A stretch of DNA of 64,000 nucleotides, from the NCBI GenBank assembly GCA_016432345.1, contig CP066685.1:112236-176235 (forward strand). Direction: 5' to 3'. Position numbers and translations under genes: made by a program. Positions 2,508 to 60,693 of this stretch are shown here, one piece after another. The DNA is from Candidatus Levyibacteriota bacterium (GTDB taxonomy: Bacteria; Patescibacteriota; Microgenomatia; Levybacterales; UBA12049). Each line of letters opens with the position of its first letter. The first letter of the stretch is position 1. The notes below the pieces were generated by a model. That model saw nothing but the letters and a program-made list of their open reading frames with translations, made no database searches and was not told the DNA's origin.

Positions 2508-3896
2508 TTATACCCCAAAACGAATATGTTTTGCATTATCACCAATATCAATTGGGTATTTTCCTGTAAAACAGGAAGTGCAAAACAAGCTTTCGGGTAG
2601 TTCGGTAGCTTTAATTAAAGCTTCGTATGACAAGAAATTAAGGGAATCTGCACCAACAAACTTTTCAATTTCCGAAACTGTCATATTTGCAGCGATAAGA
2701 TCCTTTTGAAATGGAGTATTGATGCCATAAAAATCCGGATATTTTACTGGTGGAGAGCTGATTAGAAGATGTACCTCTTTGGCTCCGGCATTTCTGACCA
2801 TCGAAACAATCTTTTTTGATGTTGTTCCTCGAACAATCGAATCATCAATAAGCACAACTTTTTTCCCAATAATCAGTTCTTCAATTGGATTTAATTTCAT
2901 TTGTACTCCCCGGTCGCGCAATTTTTGGTCGGGCATAATAAAGGTTCGACCAATGTAGCGATTTTTTACTAGACCAAATTCTAGTGGAATTTTTAACGCG
3001 TTTGCATAGCCGGTGGCTGCCGGGATTGAGGATTCAGGAACAGGAATTACCACATCTGCTTTGATGGGATATTCTTTGGCCAGGAGTTTTCCCAGGTTTT
3101 CTCGCATTTTATAGACACGTTTTCCAAGGAGTTTGCTGTCGGGTCTGGAAAAGTAGACAAATTCAAAAATATCAAGCTTTTGATTAGGCTTTGCTAGTAT
3201 TTGTGATTTAAGGCCTTTTTCACTAATAACTACCAATTCTCCAGGCGTAACATCTCTTAAGTTTTTTGCGCTGACTGTGTCAAGCGCGCATGTTTCTGAC
3301 GAAAAAATATACCCGCCATTTAAAGTTCCAATGGAAAGAGGTCGAATGCCATAACTGTCTCGAACCGCTGCAACTTTGTCTTTTGTCATAAAAAGCAAAG
3401 AAAATGCCCCTGTCATAAGAGGGAAGGTTTTTGCGATTGCGTTTTCCAGGGTTTCCCCATGTTTTAGATACCAACTAACTGTTGAATGGATGTGTTCGGT
3501 ATCGTTAAAACCTTCTGTATCTATGCCCTTTTCTACTAAAAAGCCTTTCAGTTTTTCAAGGCGCGGAAGGTTGCCGTTGTGCGCAGTAATAAGAATGTTG
3601 TCTTTGTCCGTTACCGGCTGGGTGTGTTGGAAGAGTGATCCGCCAGAAGTGGAGTAACGGTTATGTCCAATTGCTATATAGCCTTGGAGTTTGTGTAAAT
3701 CATCTTCTGTGTAAACCTGCGCAACCAGACCGGTGGATTTATGAGTTTTTATAGTTTTTCCGTCTCCCGTAGAAATACCAGAACTTTCTTGACCTCGGTG
3801 TTGGAGGGCATAGAGACCAAAGTAAGTCAATCTTGCTGCGTCAAGACCACGGCCATAAATACCAAATACCGCACACTTTTCGTTCAGTTTCTCCAT
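2508..3896 (-). CDS. purF: Amidophosphoribosyltransferase (PurF)
   Basis: 462 aa; short propeptide then CAVFGIYG (N-terminal nucleophile Cys), PRTase loop VVLIDDSIVRGTT, C-terminal Cys cluster CTSCFTGKYP. Confidence 0.92.
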   Translation of the reverse strand: MEKLNEKCAVFGIYGRGLDAARLTYFGLYALQHRGQESSGISTGDGKTIKTHKSTGLVAQVYTEDDLHKLQGYIAIGHNRYSTSGGSLFQHTQPVTDKDNILITAHNGNLPRLEKLKGFLVEKGIDTEGFNDTEHIHSTVSWYLKHGETLENAIAKTFPLMTGAFSLLFMTKDKVAAVRDSYGIRPLSIGTLNGGYIFSSETCALDTVSAKNLRDVTPGELVVISEKGLKSQILAKPNQKLDIFEFVYFSRPDSKLLGKRVYKMRENLGKLLAKEYPIKADVVIPVPESSIPAATGYANALKIPLEFGLVKNRYIGRTFIMPDQKLRDRGVQMKLNPIEELIIGKKVVLIDDSIVRGTTSKKIVSMVRNAGAKEVHLLISSPPVKYPDFYGINTPFQKDLIAANMTVSEIEKFVGADSLNFLSYEALIKATELPESLFCTSCFTGKYPIDIGDNAKHIRFGV

Positions 3897-3905
3897 TTTT
3901 AAAAA

Positions 3906-3940
3906 TAATTTCTAATTCTTAATTTCTAATTTCTAATCAA
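3906..3940. repeat. Heptamer tandem array, 5 units: TAATTTC TAATTCT TAATTTC TAATTTC TAATCAA
   Basis: Read directly; lies in the purF-purC spacer. Confidence 0.9.
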
Positions 3941-3952
3941 ATCCAAATGTTT

Positions 3953-4008
3953 AAAAATTAAATATTAAAAATTGAATGAAAATTAAAAATTTAAAATTGA
4001 AAATTTGT
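3953..4008. repeat. AT-rich 7-nt-phased array, 8 units: AAAAATT AAATATT AAAAATT GAATGAA AATTAAA AATTTAA AATTGAA AATTTGT
   Basis: Read directly; extends into the last codons of purC (...TNFQF*). Confidence 0.75.
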
Positions 4009-5447: not shown

Positions 5448-6884
5448 TTATAGAATTGTTATTCTTCCGTTTACCGCGTCTACATCTATCATATCACCAT
5501 TTTTAACAAAAGTTGTGGCGTGTTTTGTGCCGACAATGCAGGGAATGCCAAATTCTCGTGAAACAATTGCAGCATGAGATGTAATGCCGCCTTCATCGGT
5601 AACAATAGCCAAGGCCCGTCTCATGGCCGGCACATAATCCGGATGGGTAGTAACTGCTATTAAAATATTCCCAGTCTCAACATTTTTTAAATCTTTTACT
5701 CCTTTGACAATAATTGCTTTGCCTTTTACATGTCCAAGGGACGCGACTCTGCCAATTAATTCTTGATGTTTTGTCTCTTCATTTTGTAATTTAAATTGAA
5801 TAAGAGTTTTACTAACATAATCTCCTTCCAGACAAACTGTTTTTTTGTTTATGTCCAAATACATCAAAAAACCTTTTTTTCTTTGCGAAATTAAGTTTTT
5901 ATTATTTTTATTTTCTTTTGATAAAAAATCTATTATTTCTTGCTCCAAAAGATAGCTTATATCGGAAGAAGTTATCTTAAGTCTTTTTGCTATTTCGGCA
6001 AACAGGGGCAAAGCATAAAAAACTCCCTGCCTTCGGTAATCATCGCGGGCATCTTTTATGTAAACAAATCGTTTTGCCATGAGTAAATAATCAAAATCTT
6101 TTTTAGAAATTTGTAATTCTTTGGCAATTTTTTCAAATGAAATCTCATTTTTCTGCGTTACCGTTGTAAATGATTTTATATGTTCTTGAAATTCTTTTTT
6201 GGTCCACGGGCTATTATGTAAATCTAAACACGAAAGCCATTTGTATTGTTCATACAATTTTTTGAGATCTTTCCCCAAAATTTTTCCAGAATGTTTTTCG
6301 ACAATATATTGAAGTTCTAAAATTGCAGCGCGTTTTTCCGGTTTAAAAAGTGCATCATGTATATTTTGTTTTAGATTTTCTTTTTTATATTTAGTAATGT
6401 ATGAATCTATAATATTTGCTGCTTTTTCGGCAATATAATTGTTTAAAATAAAGGCGCTCCAGGCAAAATTGGAATAACGAAGTAATTTATCTTGATATTC
6501 TTTATACAATAAGGAAAGATCTTTATTTGAAAGTTTTTTTAGATTAAGACTGCCTATTTTTTTAGCGGTAGAAACATAATTTTCTCCATCCATAAAAAAT
6601 TGCTTCTCATAGCTTTCAAGATTTCTTAGATTGTTGGTATATTTTTTATTTAATCCTTCAACCAGGTTAATCCAAGATGTCTCGTCAATATAAAAGGCGG
6701 TATTTTTACCTGTTCCCGGTATAACAACTTGAATGGTTGATGTTTTTGGAAAATGGTATGAATTTTTTTCCAAAATTAAAACAGCAGCTTCGGAGTATTG
6801 CACTCCATATTCCCGCTCATAGATTTTTTTCCATGATATTTTTTTTAAATCTTTTGAAAAAATAGAATCAAGCACCTTTTTCAT
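5448..6884 (-). CDS. PEP-utilizing-enzyme family protein: C-terminal phosphohistidine swivel domain, atypical N-terminal region
   Basis: C-terminus ...AIVTDEGGITSHAAIVSREFGIPCIVGT... is the mobile His domain. The upstream helical region resembles the PpsA / rifampicin-phosphotransferase linker. ATG at 6884 (the track start is a TTG). Confidence 0.65.
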   Translation of the reverse strand: MKKVLDSIFSKDLKKISWKKIYEREYGVQYSEAAVLILEKNSYHFPKTSTIQVVIPGTGKNTAFYIDETSWINLVEGLNKKYTNNLRNLESYEKQFFMDGENYVSTAKKIGSLNLKKLSNKDLSLLYKEYQDKLLRYSNFAWSAFILNNYIAEKAANIIDSYITKYKKENLKQNIHDALFKPEKRAAILELQYIVEKHSGKILGKDLKKLYEQYKWLSCLDLHNSPWTKKEFQEHIKSFTTVTQKNEISFEKIAKELQISKKDFDYLLMAKRFVYIKDARDDYRRQGVFYALPLFAEIAKRLKITSSDISYLLEQEIIDFLSKENKNNKNLISQRKKGFLMYLDINKKTVCLEGDYVSKTLIQFKLQNEETKHQELIGRVASLGHVKGKAIIVKGVKDLKNVETGNILIAVTTHPDYVPAMRRALAIVTDEGGITSHAAIVSREFGIPCIVGTKHATTFVKNGDMIDVDAVNGRITIL

Positions 6885-24925: not shown

Positions 24926-25681
24926 ATGAAGATACTCTCTTGGAATGTGTGGAGCGAGAATGTATCGATAACAAAAGCTATACGCTTTCTAAAAAAACAA
25001 AAAGCAGATATTATTTGTTTGCAGGAAGTTTCAAAAAAATTTTTGCAAAAATTAAAAAAACTTCCTAAATACCAGCTAGTTTGCGCAATTGATTTTTACT
25101 ACATAAAAAGTAAAAAAAGAAAGACTCCTTATTTTCTAGTCATGCTATCCAAAATTTCAATTGACACACATAAGGCGTTTCAGATTCCAACCGTGCAATA
25201 TGACTCAATTATTGCGCAAATCTTTGGCCTTGAAGAATGTATAGAAGGACAATACATAGACGTTATGTATAAAGACCAAAAGATCAGAATATTTAACGTT
25301 CATTTTCAATCCTATGTTCGGCCAAAAATTAGACTTAGACAATTTGAAAGTGTAATTCAGCAGTTTAATAATACGACACATAATATTGTTTGCGGCGATT
25401 TTAATACATTTGGATTTTGGCATTTTAATGTGGTGGTTGGGTGGATTTATAATTATTCCTGGGAAGAATTTTTTATGGATGAAAAAACACTGCTTGATGA
25501 AAGGCTTAAAAGATATAAACTTATTAATATATTTAATTGGGAAGTAACGTATCCTTGGCTTGGAGTGCAATTAGATTTTATATTAACGCAAAAAAATGCA
25601 AAAGTTCGCGGCAAACAAGTATTTCAAGAGACATTTGGATCAGATCATAGACCGATATTAGCAAATGTGCATATCACATAG
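24926..25681 (+). CDS. Endonuclease/exonuclease/phosphatase (EEP) family protein
   Basis: MKILSWNVW...DIICLQEV...CGDFNTF...GSDHRPILANV. Confidence 0.8.
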   Translation: MKILSWNVWSENVSITKAIRFLKKQKADIICLQEVSKKFLQKLKKLPKYQLVCAIDFYYIKSKKRKTPYFLVMLSKISIDTHKAFQIPTVQYDSIIAQIFGLEECIEGQYIDVMYKDQKIRIFNVHFQSYVRPKIRLRQFESVIQQFNNTTHNIVCGDFNTFGFWHFNVVVGWIYNYSWEEFFMDEKTLLDERLKRYKLINIFNWEVTYPWLGVQLDFILTQKNAKVRGKQVFQETFGSDHRPILANVHIT

Positions 25682-31055: not shown

Positions 31056-32875
31056 AGAAATTCCGGCACGTCATCACTTTTTACCAAAATATGCGCATGT
31101 TGATTAATAACTCTTTCGGGAAGATCCATAATAAAACGGGAAACGGAATTTGATGTTTTTTGTCCAAAGAAAATTCTGTGTCTTGCATAGGTTAAAAACA
31201 ATTTTTGTTTGGCTCTGGTAATGCCAACGTAGCACAGCCTTCGTTCTTCCTCAAGTTCGCTCCTATCCATGAGGCTTCTGCTATGTGGAAAAAGTCCTTC
31301 TTCCATTCCAACCATAAAGACAACAGGGAATTCCAGTCCTTTTGCCGCATGCAGAGTCATAAGTGTTACGGCATTTCGTTTTTCGTCTCCGATAGGTTTG
31401 TCCGGCATATACTCTTGTTCAACAAGGGCAACATTTTCTAAAAATTGTGACAGGTCTGGATATTCAATAGCCACACTCCTTAATTCTTTAATGTTTTCAA
31501 GTCGTTGGCGGTCGTCCTCGTCCTTTTCATCATACAAGGAAAGATAGTCTGTTTTTTGCAGTACTGTATCGAGTAGTTCGAGTGTGGGAACTGATTGTAT
31601 ATTAGTTATTGATTGTTGTAGAGACAAGAATTTTTCTAAACGGCCTTTACCGAGTTTTTCTATACGTTTGTACGATACCGTATCTTTTGGGTTGGCTAGT
31701 ATTCGTAAATACGAGAGGACATCTTTAATTTCTTTTCTTTCGTAAAATCTGGTTCCTCCAATGAGTGTATATGGAATTCCTTGGTGGAGAAAAACCTCCT
31801 CGATAGTACGGGATTGCGCATTAGTGCGGTATAAAACGGCCATATCGGTAAGCTCTCTTTTCATAAAAGATATTTGATTGACAATAAATTCAGCTTCCTG
31901 GTATCCGTTTGTCGCTTCATAAATACTTATGTCATCGCCGTTTGGATTTTGGGTCCACAGTTTTAGTATGGGATGACTTTTATTTTTACTAATTACAGAG
32001 GATGCTGCATCGAGGATTTTTTGGGTAGAGCGGTAATTTTGAGAAAGCGGAAACGTTTTAACATTCGAAAAATCGTTTTTAAAACGGGTAATATTTTGAA
32101 AATCTGCGCCACGCCACGAGTAAATGCTTTGGGAAAAATCTCCTACGACACAAATGTTATTCCATTTTTTGGCGAGTAGCTTAGTTAGTTGATATTGGGC
32201 AAAATTCGTATCTTGATATTCGTCAACCAAAATATACTGGAAGCGATTTTGATATTTTTCTAAAACTTCTGGAGCTTTTTCAAAAAGTTCAAGGACACAA
32301 AGCAGTAGGTCATCAAAATCAAGAGCGTCATTTTCTTTTAATATTTTTTGGTATTCTCGATATACATTTGCTGTAACTTCTTGAAAGTGGCCCCTGGCAT
32401 ATTTTGGGTATTCATCTGCGCGAATTAGCTGGTTTTTTGCCTGGGAAATTGTTGCAAGTATCGAGCCGGGTTTATACTCTTTTGGAGAAAGATTAAGTTT
32501 TTTCATAACCTCTTTGATTGCATCTAACTGGTCTTGGCTGTCGTAGATTATAAATTGAGAAGAAATGCCAATATGCTTGCCGTCAATCCGCATGATTTTT
32601 GCACATAAGGCATGGAAGGTAGTGACAAGTGGCTGGTCTTTTTCTTGAAACATTTTGCGAATTCGCTCCTTCATCTCGTTTGCAGCTTTATTCGTAAATG
32701 TTACAGCGACTATATGAAGTGGATCGATACCTTTTTCGATAAGATGCAAAATTCTATAGGTAATTACCCGTGTTTTTCCGCTTCCAGCTCCAGCTAAGAC
32801 GATAAGTGGTCCATCTGTTTGTAGAACAGCGTTTTGTTGTTCTATATTTAGTCCATTGAGAAAATCTTTCTGCAT
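31052..32875 (-). CDS. pcrA: UvrD/PcrA-type ATP-dependent DNA helicase (short form)
   Basis: LNIEQQNAV...AGAGSGKT...FTNKAANEM...VDEYQDTN...; ATG at 32875. Confidence 0.88.
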   Translation of the reverse strand: MQKDFLNGLNIEQQNAVLQTDGPLIVLAGAGSGKTRVITYRILHLIEKGIDPLHIVAVTFTNKAANEMKERIRKMFQEKDQPLVTTFHALCAKIMRIDGKHIGISSQFIIYDSQDQLDAIKEVMKKLNLSPKEYKPGSILATISQAKNQLIRADEYPKYARGHFQEVTANVYREYQKILKENDALDFDDLLLCVLELFEKAPEVLEKYQNRFQYILVDEYQDTNFAQYQLTKLLAKKWNNICVVGDFSQSIYSWRGADFQNITRFKNDFSNVKTFPLSQNYRSTQKILDAASSVISKNKSHPILKLWTQNPNGDDISIYEATNGYQEAEFIVNQISFMKRELTDMAVLYRTNAQSRTIEEVFLHQGIPYTLIGGTRFYERKEIKDVLSYLRILANPKDTVSYKRIEKLGKGRLEKFLSLQQSITNIQSVPTLELLDTVLQKTDYLSLYDEKDEDDRQRLENIKELRSVAIEYPDLSQFLENVALVEQEYMPDKPIGDEKRNAVTLMTLHAAKGLEFPVVFMVGMEEGLFPHSRSLMDRSELEEERRLCYVGITRAKQKLFLTYARHRIFFGQKTSNSVSRFIMDLPERVINQHAHILVKSDDVPEFL

Positions 32876-32879
32876 GTCG

Positions 32880-32885
32880 TATAAT
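32880..32885 (+). promoter_or_regulatory. TATAAT 6 nt upstream of the tpiA ATG, inside a 16-nt divergent gap
   Basis: catgtcgTATAATgataccATG; the -35 position falls within pcrA coding sequence. Confidence 0.35.
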
Positions 32886-32891
32886 GATACC

Positions 32892-33554
32892 ATGAAGAAG
32901 ATATTAATTGTTGGAAATTGGAAATCAAACAAGACAGAGATTGAAACCAATGAATGGTTTCAGAGATTTACGATTTACGATTTACGATTTACGAATAAAG
33001 AAATCATCATTTGTCCGCCGTTTACATTATTATCAAATCTTAAATCATCAATCTTAAATCATAAATCTTTTATTAAGTTGGGTGCGCAGGATATTTCGCC
33101 GTTTGATGAAGGTGCTTATACGGGCGAGGTAAACGGGAAGCAAATTAAAGAGTTTGCCGACTATGTGATTATCGGCCATTCAGAACGAAGACGGTATTTT
33201 GGGGAAAGCGAAGATATAATTGTTAAAAAAATAGAAATGGCGCAAAAATACGAATTAACTCCAATAGTCTGTGTATCAGATATTAAGCAAGCTGAAAACT
33301 ATACGCGCTATACGCTAATTATCGCTTATGAACCGTTGTTTGCAATTGGTTCGGGAAACCCCGATACGCCGGAGAATGCAAATGAGATGGCCAAGAAAAT
33401 AAAAGAAATAATTGATGCTCCTGTTATCTATGGAGGGAGTGTAACCTCGCAAAATGTAAAGAGTTTTACTCAAATGCCAAGTATTGATGGCGTATTGCCT
33501 GGAAAGGCAAGTCTTGATGCTAACGAATTTGCAAGCATTATTGAGAAAGCATAA
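32892..33554 (+). CDS. tpiA: Triosephosphate isomerase
   Basis: MKKILIVGNWKSNKT...IIGHSERR...IAYEPLFAIGSG...YGGSV. Confidence 0.9.
   Translation: MKKILIVGNWKSNKTEIETNEWFQRFTIYDLRFTNKEIIICPPFTLLSNLKSSILNHKSFIKLGAQDISPFDEGAYTGEVNGKQIKEFADYVIIGHSERRRYFGESEDIIVKKIEMAQKYELTPIVCVSDIKQAENYTRYTLIIAYEPLFAIGSGNPDTPENANEMAKKIKEIIDAPVIYGGSVTSQNVKSFTQMPSIDGVLPGKASLDANEFASIIEKA
32965..32999. repeat. Heptamer array inside tpiA: GATTTAC x4 then GAATAAA
   Basis: Read directly; encodes ...RFTIYDLRFTNK... Confidence 0.95.
33035..33069. repeat. Heptamer array inside tpiA: AAATCTT AAATCAT CAATCTT AAATCAT AAATCTT
   Basis: Read directly; encodes ...SNLKSSILNHKSF... Confidence 0.9.
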
Positions 33555-36587: not shown

Positions 36588-38738
36588 TCAATAGACTTGG
36601 TAGATTTTTGTCTGATTATTTTGGTAAATAATTTTTCCTAAACGATCAAATTTTTTGATATTAAGATTTGGGTATTTTTGGCGTTCTAGGTCGCCTATAA
36701 ATATGAGGGAAATCTTGTATTTATCCATGAGTTGTTTTGTGCTGGTAAGATCACTTGTTTCATAAAGCATTTTTACTTCGTTAATTCGGGGTGCTGGAAT
36801 ATCGTATGTTCCCCGCCACAGCCATTCATGGACTGTCCATCCCAAAACCGTTGGCAAACCGGTATTGCTGGAAACTCGTGCATAGTCGGTGTACGAATCC
36901 CCTTGTGCCTCGAGGATTACCGGTTGTCCTTTTATATTTTTATTTAACCACCCAATTGCATTGTAGTCAGTCGGATATTGTTTTTTAAGGTATGCTGTTC
37001 CGTCAAGACCATAATATGTTTGCAAATTACCATAGTAAGAATTGATAGCAAAGTAAGGGTAAATAGATACGAGCAATACAAGAATTGTAGCAAGTAGTAT
37101 ATAGCATGTAGTACGTACATAATACCTAATACTTAATACTATCCGAAGGATAATATATCCCGAGGAGAGAGAAAGCATCATAAAGGATTGATAGACAAGT
37201 TTAAACATGGTATTGGCTCTGTAGTGGGCAGGGTAGATATCTTTTACATAGATAAATTCGGGGAGGATGATCAAAACAGCGGATAGGAGAATTAAGAGTA
37301 AGACGAAAACATCACTAGCGTATAGCGTATAGTGTTTAGTTTTTAGTTTTTTCCAGATAAAAATAAGAAAGGATACTGCCCAGAAGCAAAAAAAACCATA
37401 CAATATAAGCATCTGCCACCAGGGCGAGTGTTGACAGTGGTCTTTCTCAAATAAAAAAGGTCCAATTTTTCCAATATCCGTTAAAAAATTGGGCGCACAT
37501 AAGACGCCTATGCCGGAAACAAATGGTTTGAAATGTAACGAAAATGGAAGGGAAAAAAGAAAAAAACCAGCCAGGATTAGCGTATAGCGTATAGCGTATA
37601 GCGTATAGTTTTTGGAGCGATGAGCAAGATAGAAAAAGATAAACAATGTTAGTAGTCCATAAATAATGCCATCCCAGGCATTGGTCATATACATGATTGC
37701 TAATAAGAAGCTTATTAGCAAAATTTGAAATTTGAAATTTGAAATTTGAAATGAATTTTTATTTTTATAATTTTTAATTTGATTGAAAATTGAAAATTGA
37801 AAATTGAAAATTAAAGAGAGTAGTACTGCTATTGTCATCAACACAAACGGAATGTCTATAACATGACCGTGGAGATCGGAAACAACAAATGAGTACATGG
37901 GGAATTCGTGAATAGTGTTGTGAATAAAACGGGTAGCATTTGGGTACCAGTAGTTATTTGGGAGAGTATTTGGAGAAAAAGCAAGTTGCCAGACAGGAAC
38001 GGGATTTTCGTTGGTATAAGGTTTGAAAAAGGTGTAGATAGTATGTAAATTTCCAGCCATAGATACTAGAAATGCTGTCAGTACCCCTCCAATTATTAAA
38101 ACTTTTAAGTTTTGAATTTTGAGTTGATTGATGAGATTTGCACCGATAGAAAAAGAGCAGGTAAAAGTAAAAGCAAAAATTGTTGCCAGCATAAGATTGT
38201 AGGTCATGTTTGATGGAAGCATTGATGCTTTTGTCAAAACAGCAGTTACCAAATGACCAAAGTAATAGTAGTTGATCGAGAAGGGAGTAAACCACATATC
38301 TTTTGGTGGGAAATAATCGGCTCGAAGAATTGAATTAATAAATCCAAAATCCATGTATTTTTCCAGTCCGTGAATATCTGGTTGAAAACCACGAATGTAT
38401 GACCAAAATACTATTCCTGCAAAGAAAAGCAGTTCTTCAAAAAGAAAAATACGTATTGTTGACTTAGTATTCTTTTTTAGAATAAATGTGTTTATTGCAA
38501 CAAATAAACTTGCTATTAAGAAGATAGTTGAGAATGTAAAAGGAAGAATTTTTAACGTTCCTAAAACAAAAACAGCGTAGCTTACAAAAGCCATGCCCAG
38601 TATTTTAGAGAAGATATATCCTTTATCAAAAAAGTTTGAAAATATCAGGGTGGTTATCGGGAGGAAAATAATCCCTATTAAAAAAAATACAAACCACCAC
38701 TGGATAACAAAATAAAAATCAGATAAAGACATATGCAC
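36588..38738 (-). CDS. Large polytopic membrane protein, DUF2298 / 'YYY' family (GT-C-like)
   Basis: 716 aa; ...FSINYYYFGHLVTAVLTK... is the YYY signature; C-terminal soluble domain ...GQPVILEAQGDSYTDYARVSSNTGLPTVLGW... Confidence 0.6.
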   Translation of the reverse strand: MHMSLSDFYFVIQWWFVFFLIGIIFLPITTLIFSNFFDKGYIFSKILGMAFVSYAVFVLGTLKILPFTFSTIFLIASLFVAINTFILKKNTKSTIRIFLFEELLFFAGIVFWSYIRGFQPDIHGLEKYMDFGFINSILRADYFPPKDMWFTPFSINYYYFGHLVTAVLTKASMLPSNMTYNLMLATIFAFTFTCSFSIGANLINQLKIQNLKVLIIGGVLTAFLVSMAGNLHTIYTFFKPYTNENPVPVWQLAFSPNTLPNNYWYPNATRFIHNTIHEFPMYSFVVSDLHGHVIDIPFVLMTIAVLLSLIFNFQFSIFNQIKNYKNKNSFQISNFKFQILLISFLLAIMYMTNAWDGIIYGLLTLFIFFYLAHRSKNYTLYAIRYTLILAGFFLFSLPFSLHFKPFVSGIGVLCAPNFLTDIGKIGPFLFEKDHCQHSPWWQMLILYGFFCFWAVSFLIFIWKKLKTKHYTLYASDVFVLLLILLSAVLIILPEFIYVKDIYPAHYRANTMFKLVYQSFMMLSLSSGYIILRIVLSIRYYVRTTCYILLATILVLLVSIYPYFAINSYYGNLQTYYGLDGTAYLKKQYPTDYNAIGWLNKNIKGQPVILEAQGDSYTDYARVSSNTGLPTVLGWTVHEWLWRGTYDIPAPRINEVKMLYETSDLTSTKQLMDKYKISLIFIGDLERQKYPNLNIKKFDRLGKIIYQNNQTKIYQVY
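37121..37141. repeat. Heptamer array AATACCT AATACTT AATACTA
   Basis: Read directly; lies inside the YYY gene. Confidence 0.8.
37317..37351. repeat. Heptamer array AGCGTAT x2, AGTGTTT, AGTTTTT x2
   Basis: Read directly; the sense strand encodes ...KTKHYTLYAS... Confidence 0.95.
37579..37613. repeat. Heptamer array AGCGTAT x4 then AGTTTTT
   Basis: Read directly; the sense strand encodes ...KNYTLYAIRYTL... Confidence 0.95.
37699..37719. repeat. Perfect 9-bp inverted repeat GCTAATAAG-aag-CTTATTAGC next to the arrays
   Basis: Read directly; lies within coding sequence (...LLISFLLAI...). Confidence 0.9.
37721..37755. repeat. Heptamer array AAATTTG x4 then AAATGAA
   Basis: Read directly; the sense strand encodes ...FQISNFKFQ... 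Confidence 0.95.
37782..37816. repeat. Heptamer array ATTGAAA x4 then ATTAAAG
   Basis: Read directly; the sense strand encodes ...FNFQFSIFNQ... Confidence 0.95.
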
Positions 38739-42560: not shown

Positions 42561-43787
42561 TTAGATAATTTGTGCAATTTTTTCTCCAAGTTCTACCGCG
42601 TAGTTTGTGCCGCGATCCCAAGGATAGACCTGTTGCATATTAGCAAGGAAAACATTTTTTAATGGTGTTTCTAGTGTTGGTATTATTTTTGAATAATAGG
42701 TAGGAATAATCGGCTGGGCGAAAGGAGCTTTAAACAGCGTATAGTTAATAGCGTCTAGCGTATAGTTTGGATTTATTTTTCGTAGATAAGGATCATAGAT
42801 TTTTAGAAGTTCATTAGCAGATAATTTCATGTAGGGGTGGTCGTGGGGAACATAATTGCCAAGATAAACGATATGTTCATTATTATAATGTTTAGAATCC
42901 ATAAAATTAGTGTGTTCGACAATTGCCATGATGGGAGATTCTTTGTCACAAATACTTAGCCAATAGGTATTGTCAGGTAAAAATGGTTTTTTGAGACGAA
43001 GAATAAGGTTTATTGCACCTAATCCTTTTAATTGCAGCAGGTTTTGTTTATAAACATTTGGTAGTTGTGGAGCGATTTTGACAAAATAAAACGATGGTAA
43101 AGTGACGATGATCTTATCAAAATTTTTCAACTGTTTTATTTCTCTAATTTCGGTATTAAATAAAAATTTTCCCCCATTTTCTTCAATTTTTTTTACCAAT
43201 GCATTTGCGAAAGTAAGGAAACCGCCCGATGGATAGGCAAGTTGTGCTGTTCGTTTATTAATCCTTGCCCAAAACCAGGCCAGCGAAATATCATCGGCAT
43301 AATCCCCAAATTTATTATGAAGTTGGGGCTCCCAAATTGTTTGATAGGCATTTTTCCCCATGGCGTTTTGTAAAAATTCATTCGTTTTTATACTCTCGAG
43401 TGGTTGCCAAAAGGGATTGTATTTTAAGCTTCCAAGAATTGCAGCCATCCGCAAACGATCATAAATCTTTAGTTTGGGAAATTGGAGTAGATGGAGCGGA
43501 GAGTCGAATTGATAGATTTCACTATCAACGTAGACAGATGTTTTGGGCCGTTTTATGATAATTTTATGATCAATTTTTCTTGCCAGCGAAAGAATAGAGT
43601 TATCGTTTGTAAACCAATGATGATAATGCTTTTCCAATGTCCATTCCCAGTTTTTTTCTAAATAGCCAACTGCCAGTCCGCCGGGATTTTGGTCTTTCTC
43701 AAAAACATAAACTTTGTGTTTTTCTTGAGAAATATAATAAGCTGCAGAAAGACCGGTAAATCCTGCGCCGATAATAGCTATTTTCAT
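42561..43787 (-). CDS. FAD/NAD(P)-binding oxidoreductase (amine-oxidase / protoporphyrinogen-oxidase / UDP-galactopyranose-mutase-like superfamily)
   Basis: MKIAIIGAGFTGLSAAYY...VFEKDQNPGGLA (dinucleotide fold); ...HYHHWFTND... and ...IVEHTNF... are reminiscent of mutase-type members. Confidence 0.7.
   Translation of the reverse strand: MKIAIIGAGFTGLSAAYYISQEKHKVYVFEKDQNPGGLAVGYLEKNWEWTLEKHYHHWFTNDNSILSLARKIDHKIIIKRPKTSVYVDSEIYQFDSPLHLLQFPKLKIYDRLRMAAILGSLKYNPFWQPLESIKTNEFLQNAMGKNAYQTIWEPQLHNKFGDYADDISLAWFWARINKRTAQLAYPSGGFLTFANALVKKIEENGGKFLFNTEIREIKQLKNFDKIIVTLPSFYFVKIAPQLPNVYKQNLLQLKGLGAINLILRLKKPFLPDNTYWLSICDKESPIMAIVEHTNFMDSKHYNNEHIVYLGNYVPHDHPYMKLSANELLKIYDPYLRKINPNYTLDAINYTLFKAPFAQPIIPTYYSKIIPTLETPLKNVFLANMQQVYPWDRGTNYAVELGEKIAQII
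42735..42769. repeat. 35-nt heptamer-phased element AGCGTAT AGTTAAT AGCGTCT AGCGTAT AGTTTGG
   Basis: Read directly; the sense strand encodes ...PNYTLDAINYTLF... Confidence 0.9.
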
Positions 43788-48633: not shown

Positions 48634-50397
48634 ATGAAACGTGAACAGATTCGTAATTTTGCCATTATTGCCCACATTGATCATGGAAAATCAACTTTGT
48701 CGGATCGTTTTTTAGAGATTTGCCACACGATATCTAAAGAAAAAATGAAGCCGCAATTGTTAGATTCCTTGGCGCTTGAGCGAGAGAGAGGAATAACTAT
48801 AAAACTAGCTCCAGTGCAAATGCACTATACGCTAAACGCTGTAAACTATACGCTAAACTTGATTGATACGCCTGGTCATGTTGATTTTTCCTACGAGGTA
48901 TCTAGGGCATTGGCTGCTGTTGAGGGAGCGATTTTACTGATTGATGCAACACAGGGAATTCAGGCCCAGACGCTTTCGCATGGACTTTCTGCCCTATCGC
49001 AAAATTTGCGGCTTATTCCTGTTATTAACAAAATTGATTTGGCCAATGCGAATATCGAAGCTTGCAAAAAACAATTTATAGAGACGTTTGGTTTTTCGGA
49101 AGAAGAAATTATTTTGGCGTCAGGTAAGTCTGGAGTTGGAGTTATAGAAATTATTCAGGCCATTGTTGATCGAATTCCACCTCCTACCGTTGACACAGAA
49201 AAACCACTTCGGGCGTTAATTTTTGATTCTTTTTTTGACGCTTATAAAGGGGTTATAGCGCAAGTAAAAATTGTTGATGGGGAAGTTCCATCGCCCGGAC
49301 AAAAGATAAGATTTCTTGGAACAAAAGCAATGGGTGAGGTTTTAGAAAAGGGGTATTTTTCTCCAAGCCTTAAACCTATCGAAACACTTATCTCGGGAGA
49401 AATTGGGTATATTGCAACAGGTATTAAAGAACCAGATAAGGTGCATGTTGGTGATACGATAGCTGTGAGTGATATTGCGCCATTGCCTGGTTATAAAGAA
49501 GTTAAGCCAATGGTATATGTTGGATTGTACCCGATAGACCAATCGGAGTTTCACCAATTAAAAGATGTATTAGGGAAATTTAGATTAACGGATCCGGCTT
49601 TTTCTTACGCCTTGGAACATTCTGCGGCGCTGGGCGCTGGTTTTCGGTGTGGGTTTTTAGGGCTTTTACATGCCGAAGTTGTCCAACAGCGATTGTCAGA
49701 AGAATTTGGGATGGATTTATTGGCAACTACCCCATCTGTTGAATATCTTAATGGGGACGAAAAAATTACCAGTCCTGCGGATATTGATCCAATGTCAACT
49801 GAAAAATTAAAGGAGCCATGGGTATCTATACAGATTTTTAGCCCAAAAATTTACATCGGTAGTATTATGGAGGAAATGGCAAAAAAGCGTGGCGTTTTCC
49901 AAAATCAGAAATATTTTGGTTCGTCCGTTGAGCTTCAATACCTTATGCCGTTGGCAGAGATGATTACTGATTTTTATGATAAATTAAAGTCTGTTTCGTC
50001 GGGTTTTGCCTCTTTGGATTGGGAATTTTTGGAATTTCGTCCTGTTGACGCGGTTAGAATAGATTTTTTAGTGGGTGGAGAAAAAGTGGATGCTTTGTCA
50101 ACCATTGTGGTTAGGAATAAGGCAGAAGGAATTGGGCGGAAATTAGTGGAGAAACTAAAAGATGTACTGCCTCGGCAAAACTTTGAGATTGCAGTTCAAG
50201 CGGCAATTGGTGGAAAAATTATTGCTAGAGAAACAGTGTCTGCATATCGAAAAGATGTTTTAAAGAAAATGTCCGGCGGAGACAGAACCAGAAAAGACAA
50301 ACTTTTGGAAAAGCAAAAAAAGGGCAAGAAAAAAATGAAGATGGTAGGGCGGGTCGAAATACCCCAAGAAGCTTTTTTAAGTATTTTAAAATCCTAG
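48634..50397 (+). CDS. lepA: Elongation factor 4 (LepA)
   Basis: IRNFAIIAHIDHGKSTLSDR...LIDTPGHVDF...NKIDL... plus the LepA C-terminal domain. Confidence 0.95.
   Translation: MKREQIRNFAIIAHIDHGKSTLSDRFLEICHTISKEKMKPQLLDSLALERERGITIKLAPVQMHYTLNAVNYTLNLIDTPGHVDFSYEVSRALAAVEGAILLIDATQGIQAQTLSHGLSALSQNLRLIPVINKIDLANANIEACKKQFIETFGFSEEEIILASGKSGVGVIEIIQAIVDRIPPPTVDTEKPLRALIFDSFFDAYKGVIAQVKIVDGEVPSPGQKIRFLGTKAMGEVLEKGYFSPSLKPIETLISGEIGYIATGIKEPDKVHVGDTIAVSDIAPLPGYKEVKPMVYVGLYPIDQSEFHQLKDVLGKFRLTDPAFSYALEHSAALGAGFRCGFLGLLHAEVVQQRLSEEFGMDLLATTPSVEYLNGDEKITSPADIDPMSTEKLKEPWVSIQIFSPKIYIGSIMEEMAKKRGVFQNQKYFGSSVELQYLMPLAEMITDFYDKLKSVSSGFASLDWEFLEFRPVDAVRIDFLVGGEKVDALSTIVVRNKAEGIGRKLVEKLKDVLPRQNFEIAVQAAIGGKIIARETVSAYRKDVLKKMSGGDRTRKDKLLEKQKKGKKKMKMVGRVEIPQEAFLSILKS
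48827..48861. repeat. 35-nt heptamer-phased element (sense) ATACGCT AAACGCT GTAAACT ATACGCT AAACTTG
   Basis: Read directly; encodes ...HYTLNAVNYTLNL... just before the IDTPGH motif. Confidence 0.9.
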
Positions 50398-56958: not shown

Positions 56959-58387
56959 CGTAAATCATAATTTGTTCCTGATAGTCTTTTATAGAAAATG
57001 GTATAGATTGATTGTGGGACGAAACAATAAAAGTTGGTTTTATTTTATTTATTGCTATTTGTGTTTCTGCAAGTGTCTGCGGCGATGATGTTATATGGTA
57101 TGCAACGATAAATCGGCCGGGGGGAAGTTCATTTAGAAGCGCATACACTTGTCCATTATTTCCCCAAATAAATACTGTGTCATTTTTTTCCATGTGTGTT
57201 TTAAGATAGCTTGCAATTGCATAATCGGCTGGTGTATGTTTGTCAAAAAAACTTTGGTATGCAGCTACACTTTTTTTGTTAGCAACAAAAGATAAATAAT
57301 TTTCGTAATAAGAGAATATTTTTGTATAAAAAGTGAAGTTTAATCCAACAATAATTATTGTAAAGAAAAGCATAAGACCGACAATTTTTTTATATGCTTT
57401 TGTTTTGTTTTCTGTTAGAAAGAGTCCTAGCATAAGAGAGAAACTTGGGAGTAAAATCAGCAGATAATGCGTGTATGGTCTTTGAGAAAAAAAGGTATTA
57501 AAAAGGGAAAATATAAACCAAATGAAAATGAAAAGTTCAGATGAAGAGAATAAATTTCTTTTTTTGAAAAGAAAAATAGAGCCAGAAAATAAGAAGAAAA
57601 GTTTTAACAAGAGTAATCCTTGTGGAATGAGGAGACGATTGCCATAACTTACGTAGCCAATATTTTGACGAAGCGTTGCTTCTAAAAAGGGCGTGAAAGC
57701 GCCTTTAAAGAAGAAAAACGCTGCTGTAAGAAAAAGAGGAACTGCAAATGCAGCAAAAAATAACATAAGATGTTTTATAATTTGGTTTATAGATTTACTG
57801 CTGTTTTTTTCTATATAAATAAGAAAGAGGGTAAATGCCGCAAAATCAAAAATGGCGACAATTTTAAAAAGAAAAGCAAGAGAAAGGAAGAAGCCAGCAA
57901 TAATAAGCGTATAGGGTTTAGCGTTTAGCGTATAGTTGTAAATTAAAAATCCTGCGAGAATAATTGGAAGGAGCATAAAGTTTTCGGCATTGGCGATGTT
58001 GCCTTCTAAAAGAGGAAGTCCAAATAAAAGCGCAAAAAAACCAACGGATAAAAAAACTGCTTTTTCAGCTTTTAATAGTTTCTTCGAAATTAAATAAAAA
58101 GTAAAAACTGCCAGAATTCCAAATACAAAAGATAAAACTCGTAAACTAAATTGATCTGAGGAAAAAAGAGCATAGATAATATAGAGAAGCGGAGGCTTGT
58201 TGTCCCAAATATCTTTATAAAGCAATCTATTCTCATTTAACGCAATGCCAATGACTTGGTAAATTCCTTCGTCGCCATACCAATATGGTTCTATAAACGA
58301 AGGAAGACGCAATAAGAAAAATACTACAGTTACGCCAATTAAAAACCAGCAGTCTTTAGTTTTCTCGATTTTTGTCAGTAATTTCAT
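56930..58387 (-). CDS. GT-C membrane glycosyltransferase (ArnT/PMT-like)
   Basis: 485 aa; first loop ...YWYGDEGIY...DIWDNKPPLLY... is typical of family 39/83-like enzymes. Confidence 0.65.
   Translation of the reverse strand: MKLLTKIEKTKDCWFLIGVTVVFFLLRLPSFIEPYWYGDEGIYQVIGIALNENRLLYKDIWDNKPPLLYIIYALFSSDQFSLRVLSFVFGILAVFTFYLISKKLLKAEKAVFLSVGFFALLFGLPLLEGNIANAENFMLLPIILAGFLIYNYTLNAKPYTLIIAGFFLSLAFLFKIVAIFDFAAFTLFLIYIEKNSSKSINQIIKHLMLFFAAFAVPLFLTAAFFFFKGAFTPFLEATLRQNIGYVSYGNRLLIPQGLLLLKLFFLFSGSIFLFKKRNLFSSSELFIFIWFIFSLFNTFFSQRPYTHYLLILLPSFSLMLGLFLTENKTKAYKKIVGLMLFFTIIIVGLNFTFYTKIFSYYENYLSFVANKKSVAAYQSFFDKHTPADYAIASYLKTHMEKNDTVFIWGNNGQVYALLNELPPGRFIVAYHITSSPQTLAETQIAINKIKPTFIVSSHNQSIPFSIKDYQEQIMIYDAQVYEKKF
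57907..57941. repeat. 35-nt heptamer-phased element AGCGTAT AGGGTTT AGCGTTT AGCGTAT AGTTGTA
   Basis: Read directly; the sense strand encodes ...YNYTLNAKPYTLII... Confidence 0.9.
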
Positions 58388-59881
58388 TTATAACTTTTCG
58401 GTAACTTTATATTCAAGTCGCTTCCCAAACATCAGTTGGGTATGGGAAATAATAGCTGGAAGCGTTGATAGAAAAAATCCAACTATTGGTAAAAGGACAA
58501 ACTCAAGCGGAAAAAGAAATTGTTTAGCTGTAGAAACACGGGTGTCTTTTGGTCGTTGGCGATAATCAATTATTATCATAATAAGTGTGGCAAAAAGACA
58601 AAAGGTAAGAATAATGCCAGCCAGTCGTGGAAGATTGTACCCAAGTGTTGTTCGTGAGAAAGCAGGGTTTATAAAGGGCATAATGTTGGCCGCAACGGTA
58701 ATAATGAACCAATTAACAGGCCAGAGAAAATGGTCCAAAAGCACGTAGAAAAGCATCATGGTTTTTTGTACAAATGGCACACCAGGAACTGTTAGCCACC
58801 ATTTAATAAATACTGGGTCGTCTGATACTCCCCACGACCATCGTCTCTCTTGATCATACTTATTTTTAAGGGTTTTTAAGTATGTTGAAGACAATGGTGC
58901 ATCCATGGAGGTTTTTAAGAAAATTGGCTCTACATAGGCGTTGCCTTTGAGTATATAAAATGCCTTAAAAAAGATGCGGTAATCTTCTGGAATAACATCT
59001 GTATCCCAAAAATCAATTTGCCGCAAGAGCCGCAATGAGAGCGAGTAGGTGGAGTTGGCAACCAAGCGATCTTTCTGAACCAAAAGACCTGTTCGCCACA
59101 GACTGCCAAAAAAGGATAAAACGCGGATAGGAGCTGGAACTTTCCAGAAATTATTATAATTAACATTTGCAGATTGCCAAAATGTGTTGTATTTATTTTT
59201 GTTGGAGAGAAATTTGTGTGTTAGATACGCAAAATACTGCCTATCAAAAATGGAGTCGGCATCAACGGAAGAGATGGTGGCAAAGTCCTCGTTAATAACG
59301 CCCTTTTCTACCCAAACTATATAGGCTTTTTTAGCGGCAAATGCTTGGTTTGATGATTTTCCTTTTACTTCTCCTGGCATATCTGTATGGAAGGTGGCAA
59401 TCATTCCGCCAAATTTATAGCCAAATTCTTGGATAAGAGTATTAGCTTTTTGTTGGACATCTTGTTCTCTCTCTTCCATCCCCAAAACGACAAAGAGCTT
59501 TTTTGTGGTAATGGTTTGATTTGCAATAGAAGCAATTGATTGGCGAAGCTTTTCAATACTTTCTTTATAGTTGGGAATAACAATTACGTGGGTTATTTTT
59601 TTAAACTCTTTTAGCGTTTTTACTTCTTTTACCCAATCTTGCGCTTCGGCCCTTCGAATGCGGCGTGAAGCTATAAAGGCGGTTATTGCCAAGGAGAATG
59701 ATTTGTAAAACCAATAGACATCAAAAAAAAGAATAAAATAAGCAAGGGCAAGAGGGAAAAAAAGCGATCCCCAGATTGGGAAAAAGATTAGCGTCCAAGA
59801 AATTACTCCTGGCAATAGCTCAAGAGCACGTCGTGTTTTGACAGGATAGCGAGTAAAAATTCTATCGAAAAAATGGGTCAT
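58388..59881 (-). CDS. Membrane-embedded family-2 glycosyltransferase (processive, cellulose/chitin-synthase-like)
   Basis: ...VIVIPNYKE...SVDADS...QERRWSWG (D, DxD, Q-x2-RW pattern); TM segments on both sides. Confidence 0.75.
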   Translation of the reverse strand: MTHFFDRIFTRYPVKTRRALELLPGVISWTLIFFPIWGSLFFPLALAYFILFFDVYWFYKSFSLAITAFIASRRIRRAEAQDWVKEVKTLKEFKKITHVIVIPNYKESIEKLRQSIASIANQTITTKKLFVVLGMEEREQDVQQKANTLIQEFGYKFGGMIATFHTDMPGEVKGKSSNQAFAAKKAYIVWVEKGVINEDFATISSVDADSIFDRQYFAYLTHKFLSNKNKYNTFWQSANVNYNNFWKVPAPIRVLSFFGSLWRTGLLVQKDRLVANSTYSLSLRLLRQIDFWDTDVIPEDYRIFFKAFYILKGNAYVEPIFLKTSMDAPLSSTYLKTLKNKYDQERRWSWGVSDDPVFIKWWLTVPGVPFVQKTMMLFYVLLDHFLWPVNWFIITVAANIMPFINPAFSRTTLGYNLPRLAGIILTFCLFATLIMIIIDYRQRPKDTRVSTAKQFLFPLEFVLLPIVGFFLSTLPAIISHTQLMFGKRLEYKVTEKL

Positions 59882-60693
59882 AGTCTAAAAATTGCTTTGG
59901 CGTTTTTGGTTGTTTGCGTATCAACTTCCTCAAGCGAAATACCTTTAATTTTGGCTATTTCTTGCCCTACTAGTATAGCATATTGCGGTTCGTTTCTCTT
60001 GCCCCTATAGGGTATTGGAGTAAGGTAGGGACTATCTGTCTCGATAACAATTCGATCAAGAGGTACGTAGTTTACAAGTTCGGAAAGTTCGGTATCCTCA
60101 CCAGGAGCTAATCCTTTATAGGTAATATTACCGTCAAAGCCTACATAAAAGCCTAAATCAAGCACTTTTTTGGTGAATCCAATATTTCCTGAAAAACAAT
60201 GAAACATTCCAGGAGGATTAAAGATTAATGATTTATGATTAATGAGAATATCTAAAATTTCTTTTCCGGCGTGGCGGTTGTGGATTTGCAAAGGTAATTT
60301 AAGCTTATGAGCAAGTTCAATTTGCTGTATAAAAATTTCTGCTTGTAATTTTGGGTCGGTAATGCCGTTTGATTGGTATCGGTAGTTATCCATACCAATT
60401 TCGCCAATAGCCACTACTTTTTTGCTCGATTTTGCTATGGTTTTAAGTTGTGTAAGCCAATCTGTTCCAAGTTCGATTTTGTCTGCATGGTGGGGGTGAA
60501 CGCCCACAATGGCATACATTTCGCCAGCTGGCGAATCGTATTTTTCTGCCAGTTCGACAGCCTTCTGGCTGGAATCAATCTTGGTGCCAACATTTATAAT
60601 GGTTGTTACACCGGCCGCAAAAGCACGTTTTGCAACCTCATCGTAGTCATTATCATAAGCTTGAAAATTAAGGTGGCAATGGATATCAATCAT
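59878..60693 (-). CDS. tatD: TatD-family metal-dependent hydrolase
   Basis: MIDIHCHLNF...GEIGMD...HNRHA...ETDSPYL. Confidence 0.88.
   Translation of the reverse strand: MIDIHCHLNFQAYDNDYDEVAKRAFAAGVTTIINVGTKIDSSQKAVELAEKYDSPAGEMYAIVGVHPHHADKIELGTDWLTQLKTIAKSSKKVVAIGEIGMDNYRYQSNGITDPKLQAEIFIQQIELAHKLKLPLQIHNRHAGKEILDILINHKSLIFNPPGMFHCFSGNIGFTKKVLDLGFYVGFDGNITYKGLAPGEDTELSELVNYVPLDRIVIETDSPYLTPIPYRGKRNEPQYAILVGQEIAKIKGISLEEVDTQTTKNAKAIFRL

Follow-up and report, generated by a model that had tools for sequence, protein, structure and literature searches.

In a 64,000-nt stretch of DNA from Candidatus Levyibacteriota bacterium (assembly GCA_016432345.1, contig CP066685.1, forward strand positions 112,236 to 176,235; hereafter called the window, whose own numbering is used throughout), the gene tpiA, which encodes the glycolytic enzyme triosephosphate isomerase (TPI), contains short tandem arrays of 7-nt units. 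This locus raises the question whether such arrays are a property of the DNA or of the protein, and how a core enzyme came to contain them. A preliminary description of the sequence had held that segments of the gene were overwritten by period-7 DNA while the reading frame was kept, and had reasoned that orthologues encoding the same peptides with different codons and no 7-nt periodicity would point to conservation of the protein. Our analysis showed that the periodicity resides in the DNA and not in the peptide, that it is specific for period 7, and that it recurs in numerous genes and, in many relatives, at corresponding sites of tpiA; that the units differ between lineages at one site, yet are in register and uniform within each array; and that wherever a perfect array would put a stop codon in frame, one base change has removed it. 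The explanation that we favour, with moderate confidence, is that the tpiA arrays belong to a lineage-wide heptamer family resembling the short tandemly repeated repetitive (STRR) sequences of cyanobacteria, in which a copying process specific for period 7 makes and homogenises the arrays and selection on the protein acts as a filter.

Codon usage and periodicity in the tpiA arrays

Three arrays lie within tpiA (Table 1), and we refer to their positions in orthologues as sites 1, 2 and 3 and to related loci by L numbers. In array 1, four GATTTAC units (32965-32992) are followed by a degenerate GAATAAA that ends at 32999, the exact period-7 run reaching 32994; Tandem Repeats Finder (TRF) assigned it period 7 with 4.3 copies, 100% matches and a score of 60. 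Array 2 reads AAATCTT AAATCAT CAATCTT AAATCAT AAATCTT, with a single mismatch (the C at 33049), and is best described by TRF as period 14 with 2.5 copies, 90% matches and a score of 63. Apart from this one mismatch, the coordinates and translations first given needed no revision.

The tpiA DNA was compared with that of 31 further distinct relatives, whose TPI proteins are 47-72% identical to that of the window. Where residues were the same, the window's codon was found in 103 of 117 cells (88%) within arrays 1 and 2, against 511 of 1031 (50%) elsewhere in tpiA, which is not the pattern of a protein-level repeat with a conserved peptide and free codons. The residue-matched expectation for the two arrays is 62.9 of 117 (54%), none of 20,000 simulations reached 103, and the bias had the same direction in all eight orthologues of the test. 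Since codon identity lies far above the residue-matched expectation, conservation at the protein level is rejected, and since the orthologues keep both the 7-nt periodicity and the codons, the arrays are features of the DNA, as the preliminary description had proposed.

It is therefore very improbable that the arrays reflect selection on the peptide alone (LKSxILNHKS and YTLxxxxYTL loops), with the DNA periodicity incidental. The peptides of sites 1 and 2 are indeed recognisably similar across orthologues, and YTLNxxxYTLN in LepA is a hairpin motif of constant length throughout the Candidate Phyla Radiation (CPR). Besides codon identity, however, such selection is contradicted by the minimal patches that remove stop codons and by the different site 1 peptides that perfect arrays encode; moreover, a four-unit array amounts to merely 1.3 peptide periods, and only period 7 is enriched, periods 6 and 9 yielding no arrays.

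Heptamer arrays in the window and in related genomes

At a threshold of at least 19 matches in 21, four arrays were found in the window at lag 7 and 0 in 20 shuffles, and lags 4-6 and 8-12 gave 0. Lowering the threshold to 18/21 gave seven lag-7 arrays in the window and 60 in a further 228 kb of Levybacteria-like loci, with none in either at lags 5, 6 and 8-11. Three other CPR loci had 0.16 arrays per 10 kb. The control set consisted of 1.27 Mb of loci from outside the Levybacteria, obtained by a generic scan of contigs for the TPI motif; a few heptamer arrays were seen in its loci of Nitrospirota (L034, 93 nt) and Verrucomicrobia (L023).

Of the 99 arrays in 27 Levybacteria-like loci, 93-94 (~95%) lie in open reading frames (ORFs) of at least 100 aa, a proportion equal to the fraction of bases under such ORFs. 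The near-perfect arrays among them measure 21-35 nt and never exceed 5.0 units. The consensus unit of 38 arrays contains a stop codon, and here the in-frame stop is removed by one base change. Among the hosts are genes for LepA, TatD, PMT_2, FemAB, DUF2298, an amine oxidase and a UvrD-type helicase, and several genes and genomes have the units AATTTTC, AAATTTC, AATTTCC, AACTCTC and AAATCAT in common. The DUF2298 gene of the window (36588-38738, minus strand) holds at least six arrays of five different units, and its orthologues carry arrays and GC-rich inserts at matching loop positions. Two adjacent arrays lie between genes at 3906-4005, upstream of the minus-strand gene at 2508-3896; on the strand of that gene one reads ATTAGAA x4.6 and stops ~10 nt short of the ATG, and the other consists of ~8 units of AATTTTN type, so that the family also occupies the scarce intergenic DNA.

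In Haemophilus influenzae, hmw1A undergoes phase variation through heptanucleotide repeats (PMC8262952), and the present arrays might by analogy be contingency loci that switch genes by slippage, or else artefacts of assembly. The 3.4-kb Logan contig SRR22388331_8063313 (L084) starts inside AGTTGAG x4.3 (1-30) and ends inside AATTTCC x3.3 (3345-3367), which suggests that short-k-mer assemblies break at dispersed heptamer arrays. Both ideas are scarcely credible: the hosts are housekeeping genes (TPI, LepA, UvrD, TatD, FemAB) rather than dispensable surface genes, and the arrays are in frame in every independent assembly (NCBI, ENA, JGI, Logan), with copy number fixed at ~4. Two further candidates were dropped. 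Internal promoters in the arrays were weak 9/12 matches only, with 6 found against 3.0 +/- 1.7 in shuffles, and an N-glycosylation sequon (N-Y-T) was set aside because TPI and LepA are cytosolic.

Evolution of the array at site 1

Relatives carry at least eight different, related units at site 1, which in most genes is 36 nt long with the units in register. GATTTAC is perfect in the window and GAATTAC in L104, perfect or near-perfect arrays are formed by AATTTTC in L081 and L094 (L091 has this unit too) and by CAATTTC in L088 and L108, and GATTWAA in L095 forms a less uniform one. Longer versions consist of ACAATTA (L099), AAATCTC (L116) or AGAGTTY (L113), mixed arrays (GATTTAC GAATTAY GATTTAM GATTTAC) occur in L082, L084 and L089, and periodicity was looked for at this site in L117, L097, L100 and L102 and none was found. 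The main 36-nt units are separated by 1-3 substitutions, arrays with different units are interspersed in a poorly resolved tree, and the encoded peptides differ (IYDLRF, IFNFQF, NFQFPI, NYELRI), each arising from a perfect DNA array. Judged from these sequences, site 1 looks like an old array whose units have repeatedly been homogenised (concerted evolution).

L103 and L104, which are 98% identical and form the sole informative close pair, have the same copy number and differ by one base in the first unit, and thus lend no support to the preliminary idea that three units are gained or lost together. Indels in steps of 21 nt (three units) were sought at site 1; length differences were 3, 6, 9, 15, 24 nt and more, with no preference for 21. 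The GAATTAC unit of this pair was also seen, in 3.5 copies, in a Bacteroidales metagenome-assembled genome (L076, 16148-16182).

Site 2 and the inverted pair

Segments 32964-32994 and 33038-33068 form an inverted pair of 31 nt with 84% complementarity, and on this evidence array 2 is most readily taken as an inverted copy of array 1. Its orientation puts TAA into the (W)TAAATC unit, and the single in-frame TAA is escaped by one base change, namely to TCA in the window, L081, L091 and L101 and to TAT or TAC in seven other lineages. In L086 the site 2 DNA (LDWRIKNQKLG) shows no periodicity and has exactly the length of the array; the periodic sequence therefore replaced native sequence and was not inserted.

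Such pairing could be expected if the arrays were functional cis-elements in DNA or mRNA, lying over coding sequence and with their nucleotides kept by purifying selection, either as tandem 7-nt sites for a conserved nucleic-acid-binding factor or, when paired, as a regulatory hairpin of the tpiA mRNA. We regard this as unlikely, though deserving of serious consideration. The pairing of arrays 1 and 2 exceeds that of shuffles in the window, L082, L084, L087 and L095. The predicted mRNA stem is weak, however (-17.6 kcal/mol, z = -1.42), 18 of 200 shuffles folding equally well, and the site 1 unit varies (at least eight units) while array 2 is constant. Complementarity of the arms is lost in lineages where site 1 changed its unit, and consistent covariation across the orthologues is absent. 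A conserved hairpin was rejected on these grounds, and given the weak stem and the loss of complementarity upon a unit switch, the inversion is read as a trace of the making of the array and not as a conserved RNA structure.

A length-neutral exchange was also seen in the 99.8% identical contigs L116 and L118, which differ by a swapped 14-nt stretch over tpiA codons 10-15 (L116 6030-6043). In L118 the replacement is the reverse complement of the adjacent downstream sequence and forms a perfect 19-bp hairpin. Because the catalytic NWK motif is destroyed, the L118 variant is either a dead allele or an artefact; the exchange would stem from a template-switch mutation, or else from a fault of snap-back or assembly.

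Site 3 and the CTATACG family

At site 3, roughly half of the orthologues lack a repeat and have a short form, 'IPxGV', and the others have arrays of unlike units (CTCAAAA, GATTWAM, AATTCAT, ATGCAAA). Array 3 of the window contains the core CTATACG-CG-CTATACGCT (33299-33316), and its 25-mer equals the 37-nt DUF2298 cassette AAAACTATACG(CTATACGCTATA)CGCTATACGCTAAT with the bracketed 12 nt deleted in frame. The window holds 14 copies of CTATACGCT where 0.25 would be expected, a count that 0 of 100 shuffles reached, and CTATACG is present at six window loci as well as in L085, L087 and L171. The same YTL-coding DNA had been ascribed to five genes other than tpiA; four stand (DUF2298 twice, amine oxidase, LepA, PMT_2), and the fifth, at 24978, proved to be a single 9-mer read as AIR. 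Five genomes keep the DUF2298 cassette base for base, with the codons ACG and CTA at either YTL position. Between the LepA genes of the window and of a Candidatus Amesbacteria genome, codons for the same residue are identical at 9/9 positions in the cassette and at 0/12 in the flanks (14 flanking codons; Fisher p = 3.4e-6), and in one Curtissbacteria LepA a different array, AACCATT x3.5, takes the CTATACG position.

This deep conservation of particular units keeps the cis-element reading alive. It accords with the conserved synonymous sites inside arrays, with the recurrence of the same units in many genes, with the CTATACG of LepA and the DUF2298 cassette just described, and with the preserved end units and diverged middles of three 30-mers (Table 1); cold-shock-type CspB, moreover, binds with one protein per heptamer repeat according to PMC4679880. 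Against it, two CTATACG units are 21 nt apart in three genes and 9 nt apart in tpiA, and the many units would need many readers, or one that reads periodicity alone; no candidate reader was identified.

The CTATACG family also bears on another idea, that the arrays are mobile or copy-paste cassettes of ~30 nt, spread by ectopic short-patch gene conversion or another kind of insertion and surviving in frame in tolerant loops, after the manner of Rickettsia palindromic elements or of the small dispersed repeats of cyanobacteria. Near-identical 30-mers (CTATACGCT-12 nt-CTATACGCT) in four unrelated genes and one codon phase argue for it, as do array 3 being a deleted copy of the DUF2298 cassette together with 4 flanking nt on the 5' side and 3 on the 3' side, the wholly different units at site 3 of relatives, the GC-rich palindromes and hairpins inserted with a change of length in the same loops, and the CTATACG arrays in unrelated IMG/VR contigs of 42-70% GC. 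We nevertheless judge it quite unlikely. Sites 1, 2 and LepA have the same length in orthologues without arrays, rather than showing length-adding presence and absence, and are therefore not simple insertions; the site 1 units lie 1-3 substitutions apart in register, as evolution in place predicts; no terminal repeats, target duplications or associated transposase or integrase were seen; and AT-rich stop-free units such as AATTTTC constitute a small vocabulary in which convergence is possible.

The CTATACG arrays in IMG/VR contigs have 3-7 units and were found in L172/L178 (IMGVR_UViG_3300031651_000021), L173 (GC 0.70) and L174/L176 (a 291-kb uncultivated virus genome, UViG), one contig being packed with other heptamer arrays as well (AGTCAGT, TTCTGTM, ACGCTGA); occurring in unrelated viral contigs of very different GC, the unit recurs across phyla. 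A DNA-uptake-sequence model for CTATACGCT was rejected: it fits the shared phase and the loop placement but leaves the tandem arrays and the many other units unexplained.

How the arrays may be made and kept

In the heptamer-family explanation that we favour, slipped or misaligned templated synthesis would homogenise the units within an array. A copy-number change of one or two units is a frameshift and would be purged, while homogenisation of the sequence would continue. Because 7 is not a multiple of 3, arrays in genes would be stuck at ~4 units, which would account for their narrow size range. Array 2 may have arisen from array 1 as a length-neutral inverted copy, through template switching between the arms of a quasi-palindrome, and the length-neutral inverted overwrite in L116/L118 was counted in favour of this account. 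Array 3 was probably copied from the CTATACG cassette of DUF2298, or shares its origin, and would then have lost 12 nt. Templated copying would thus proceed in three ways: through misalignment inside single arrays, through a switch of template from one inverted arm to the other and, now and then, from one locus to another. The enzyme tolerates the arrays because the sites are on the solvent side (helix 1 and loop, helix 2 and loop, loop before strand 6), away from catalytic and phosphate-binding residues.

The proposal that segments were overwritten with the frame kept fits site 2 (same length in L086, inverted copy) and site 3 (25-nt cassette copy). The implied event is neither recent nor special to this tpiA, arrays at sites 1 and 2 being common to many lineages whose TPIs are 56-72% identical.

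Several points weigh against the explanation by copying and homogenisation. The orthologues of the codon test are non-independent samples. The account offers no mechanism by which a first four-unit array would arise in an essential gene while avoiding frameshifted intermediates, and polymorphism of copy number or sequence between close strains was not demonstrated, L103/L104 being the one informative pair. The six CTATACG arrays in unrelated genes have one common codon phase, for which the chance is ~(1/3)^5 = 0.004, and the exact end units and diverged middles of the three CTATACG 30-mers are not predicted by simple slippage. The deep identity of the LepA units is not explained by homogenisation within an array, and the codons ACG and CTA of the LepA cassette look atypical for a genome of 36% GC. 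Simple slippage likewise leaves unexplained the base-level conservation of the DUF2298 cassette, the different array of the Curtissbacteria LepA and the CTATACG arrays of the IMG/VR contigs.

The enzyme and its genomic setting

The identification of the gene as tpiA was confirmed by the Pfam TIM (PF00121) profile, which covers residues 5-219 of 220 (E = 2.4e-60) and thus the full length of the product; the best PDB match is 6bve (E = 8e-42), and the product is 100% identical to the NCBI triosephosphate isomerase record of Candidatus Levyibacteriota bacterium. Residues N9, K11, H96, E147, G153, Y180-S183 and S207-L208 are invariant across 28 TPI orthologues including that of the window, and the catalytic Asn/Lys (NWK), His (GHSERR) and Glu (YEP) and the phosphate-binding loops (AIGSG, YGGS, ASL) are intact. 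Judged by profile match, intact residues, fold alignment and model, the encoded TPI looks functional.

An AlphaFold2 model built with the 28 orthologues as input had a mean predicted local distance difference test score (pLDDT) of 88.3 and placed helices 1 and 2 at residues 16-27 and 44-56 and strands 2 and 3 at 36-41 and 62-65; near site 3 it had a short helix (131-135) and strand 6 (143-146). According to this model, array 1 (residues 25-36) would encode the end of helix 1, a loop and the start of strand 2, array 2 (residues 48-60) most of helix 2 and the following loop, and array 3 (residues 136-142) the loop preceding strand 6. In the alignment with 6bve no residues are added at site 1 and site 2 differs by 2 residues, which bears out the earlier statement that the spacing is that of ordinary TPIs; alignment and model agree that the arrays occupy surface helix and loop segments and add little length, again as first proposed. 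The canonical helix 5 near site 3 is mostly missing from the whole TPI clade in the same alignment.

The neighbourhood is conserved in relatives, with a UvrD-type helicase gene on the opposite strand followed by those for TIM, a LytR_cpsA_psr protein and DUF2298. As the TATAAT of the promoter-like sequence (Table 1) ends 6 nt before the ATG, the tpiA mRNA may be leaderless or nearly so. The longest listed ORF of the divergent helicase gene overlaps this promoter-like region (32856-32894).

Table 1. Position and strand of tpiA, its arrays and related heptamer arrays in the window
Feature	Position	Strand	Remarks
tpiA, triosephosphate isomerase	32892-33554	+	220 aa; ATG at 32892; Pfam TIM
Promoter-like TTGAGA-18-TATAAT	32856-32885	+	11/12 consensus matches, consensus match alone; ends 6 nt before tpiA ATG
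Array 1, GATTTAC x4 + degenerate GAATAAA	32965-32999	+	encodes R25-K36, RFTIYDLRFTNK
Array 2, AAATCTT/AAATCAT, (W)TAAATC family	33035-33069	+	five units; encodes S48-F60
Array 3, AAAACTATACG-CGCTATACGCTAAT	33295-33319	+	encodes NYTRYTL; string comparison with DUF2298 cassette
DUF2298 arrays	37116-37140, 37316-37332, 37330-37351, 37578-37608, 37721-37752, 37782-37815	-	
Canonical CTATACG x4.4 cassette AAAACTATACGCTATACGCTATACGCTATACGCTAAT, DUF2298	37576-37612	-	NYTLYAIRYTL; closest relative of array 3, 4 kb away
Second, shorter CTATACG array, DUF2298	37316-37332	-	HYTLYA
Two more DUF2298 arrays, TTTCAAA x4.6 and TTTTCAA x4.9 (coding strand)	37721-37815	-	TTTTCAA is the site 1 unit of L081, L091, L094
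CTATACG-family 30-mer, amine-oxidase gene	42736-42765	-	NYTLDAINYTL; end units exact, middle diverged
CTATACG-family 30-mer, LepA	48825-48854	+	HYTLNAVNYTL
CTATACG-family 30-mer, PMT_2 glycosyltransferase gene	57906-57935	-	NYTLNAKPYTL
ATTAATC/ATAAATC array, TatD	60216-60245	-	LINHKSLIFN; unit family of tpiA array 2; in-frame TAA patched to AAA

Other elements in and near the array genes

GC-rich palindromes were seen next to the heptamers. A perfect one, TTCGCCAGCTGGCGAA, lies at 60520-60535 in the TatD gene of the window (59878-60693, minus strand), and its 12-nt core, CGCCAGCTGGCG, also interrupts the site 1 array of L085 (CCGCCAGCTGGCGG, +6 nt). L082 carries CCGTCAGCTGACGG at site 3, and L084 and L088 have a common 21-nt hairpin insert, C(T/C)GCCTGCCGGCGAGGCAGG, at site 2 with the peptide PAGEAG. 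Addition of length, as expected from mobile intragenic elements, was found for these GC-rich palindromes only (+6 nt in L085, +21 nt in L084 and L088). By their sequence they seem to constitute a second family in these genomes, made up of very small palindromic elements in frame. In the DUF2298 gene of L087 (11776-14160) a GC-rich peptide-coding insert occurs thrice in loops (GQARMTKERN, GQARMTSSWQLRAKR, SGQARMTSSWGVKRLQN), which points to a dispersed element, likewise in frame, other than the heptamers. Downstream of tpiA, L104 (~6735-6860) has an insertion of ~129 nt relative to its 98% identical strain L103 (6726); it has a flanking direct repeat, AATTTTCAATGAA, and a long hairpin inside, and may be a miniature mobile element.

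Relation to known repeats

Mazel et al. are said to have described heptanucleotide STRR sequences of cyanobacteria in 1990. The STRR of Calothrix PCC 7601 (cited in PMC4692102) and the Levybacteria arrays both consist of tandem 7-nt units in few to several copies. In both, few kinds of unit recur, at many loci and across genera, and both are specific for period 7. In 272 kb of cyanobacterial tpiA neighbourhoods we found 48 arrays, 28 of them outside ORFs though 82% of the bases are under an ORF. Cyanobacterial arrays are hence depleted in ORFs (20/48), mostly intergenic and up to 95 nt long, whereas those of Levybacteria lie in ORFs of at least 100 aa in 94 of 99 cases, in frame, in essential genes and with a maximum of ~5 units. 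The hosts differ too: STRR belong to (heterocystous) cyanobacteria, and the present source is a member of Candidatus Levyibacteriota, within the CPR.

Among long simple-sequence repeats of prokaryotes, heptamers show the strongest over-representation, for which polymerase slippage is a proposed cause (Mrazek 2007, as summarised in PMC4692102 and PMC4679880). The favoured period and an origin by slippage are shared with the present arrays, in which, by contrast, a non-triplet unit is pervasive in genes and deeply conserved. TAACTGA repeats of marine Beggiatoaceae (PMC4679880) and GGGAATC or GGGGAYT repeats of Xanthomonas and Nostoc (PMC4692102) resemble the Levybacteria arrays in comprising 2-6 or more direct heptamers with a scattered phylogeny, occasional inverted pairs and a coding orientation dictated by stop codons. 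They have one dominant unit per genome, intergenic and often just upstream of starts, against many intragenic units in Levybacteria. Heptamer repeats have been described for cyanobacteria, Xanthomonas, Beggiatoaceae and Haemophilus promoters; a literature search for heptamer repeats in CPR or Patescibacteria, and for in-frame heptamer arrays in core genes, returned nothing relevant. Prokaryotic heptamer repeats have been known since 1990 and 2007, and to our knowledge no mechanism or function has been established for them and they have been treated as intergenic.

Rickettsia palindromic elements and small dispersed repeats (SDRs), the cyanobacterial form of which was reportedly described by Elhai et al. 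in 2008, are non-tandem, often palindromic elements of 21-150 nt that add length. Being DNA-level, in frame and tolerated at the surface, they would be analogous to the GC-rich palindromes described above (CGCCAGCTGGCG and relatives) and are unlike the tpiA arrays, which are tandem 7-mers that add no length at sites 1 and 2. The study of Borg elements is said to report ORF repeats with unit lengths divisible by three and freely variable copy number. These evolve rapidly and make new peptide segments, as here, but the Levybacteria unit is 7 nt and its copy number is fixed. In quasi-palindrome template switching, reportedly described by Ripley and by the Lovett laboratory, one arm is replaced by a copy of the other with the length unchanged. 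This matches array 2 in relation to array 1 and the L118 variant, although the process is known as a mechanism of point and complex mutation in E. coli and phage T4 and not as a generator of repeat families.

Implications

A bolder suggestion, which we put forward tentatively and think rather unlikely, is that heptamers are written or read by a conserved system of Microgenomates (Levybacteria, Amesbacteria, Curtissbacteria). This could be a templated copying activity by which loop-coding DNA is repeatedly overwritten with ~4 copies of a 7-nt unit, or else a factor binding to the arrays. Essential genes would then be overlaid with a second, nucleotide-level code, with CTATACG kept above the level of synonymous sites across class-level divergence.

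In these genomes heptamers lie inside essential genes, where the frame freezes the copy number and orthologues give the precise ancestral context, while synonymous sites in the array genes serve as an internal neutral control. The rate of homogenisation, copying between loci and selection on array nucleotides thereby become testable. For annotation and protein evolution in the CPR, the arrays mean that segments of core enzymes in reduced genomes may be shaped by a process acting at the level of the DNA and not by the needs of the protein.

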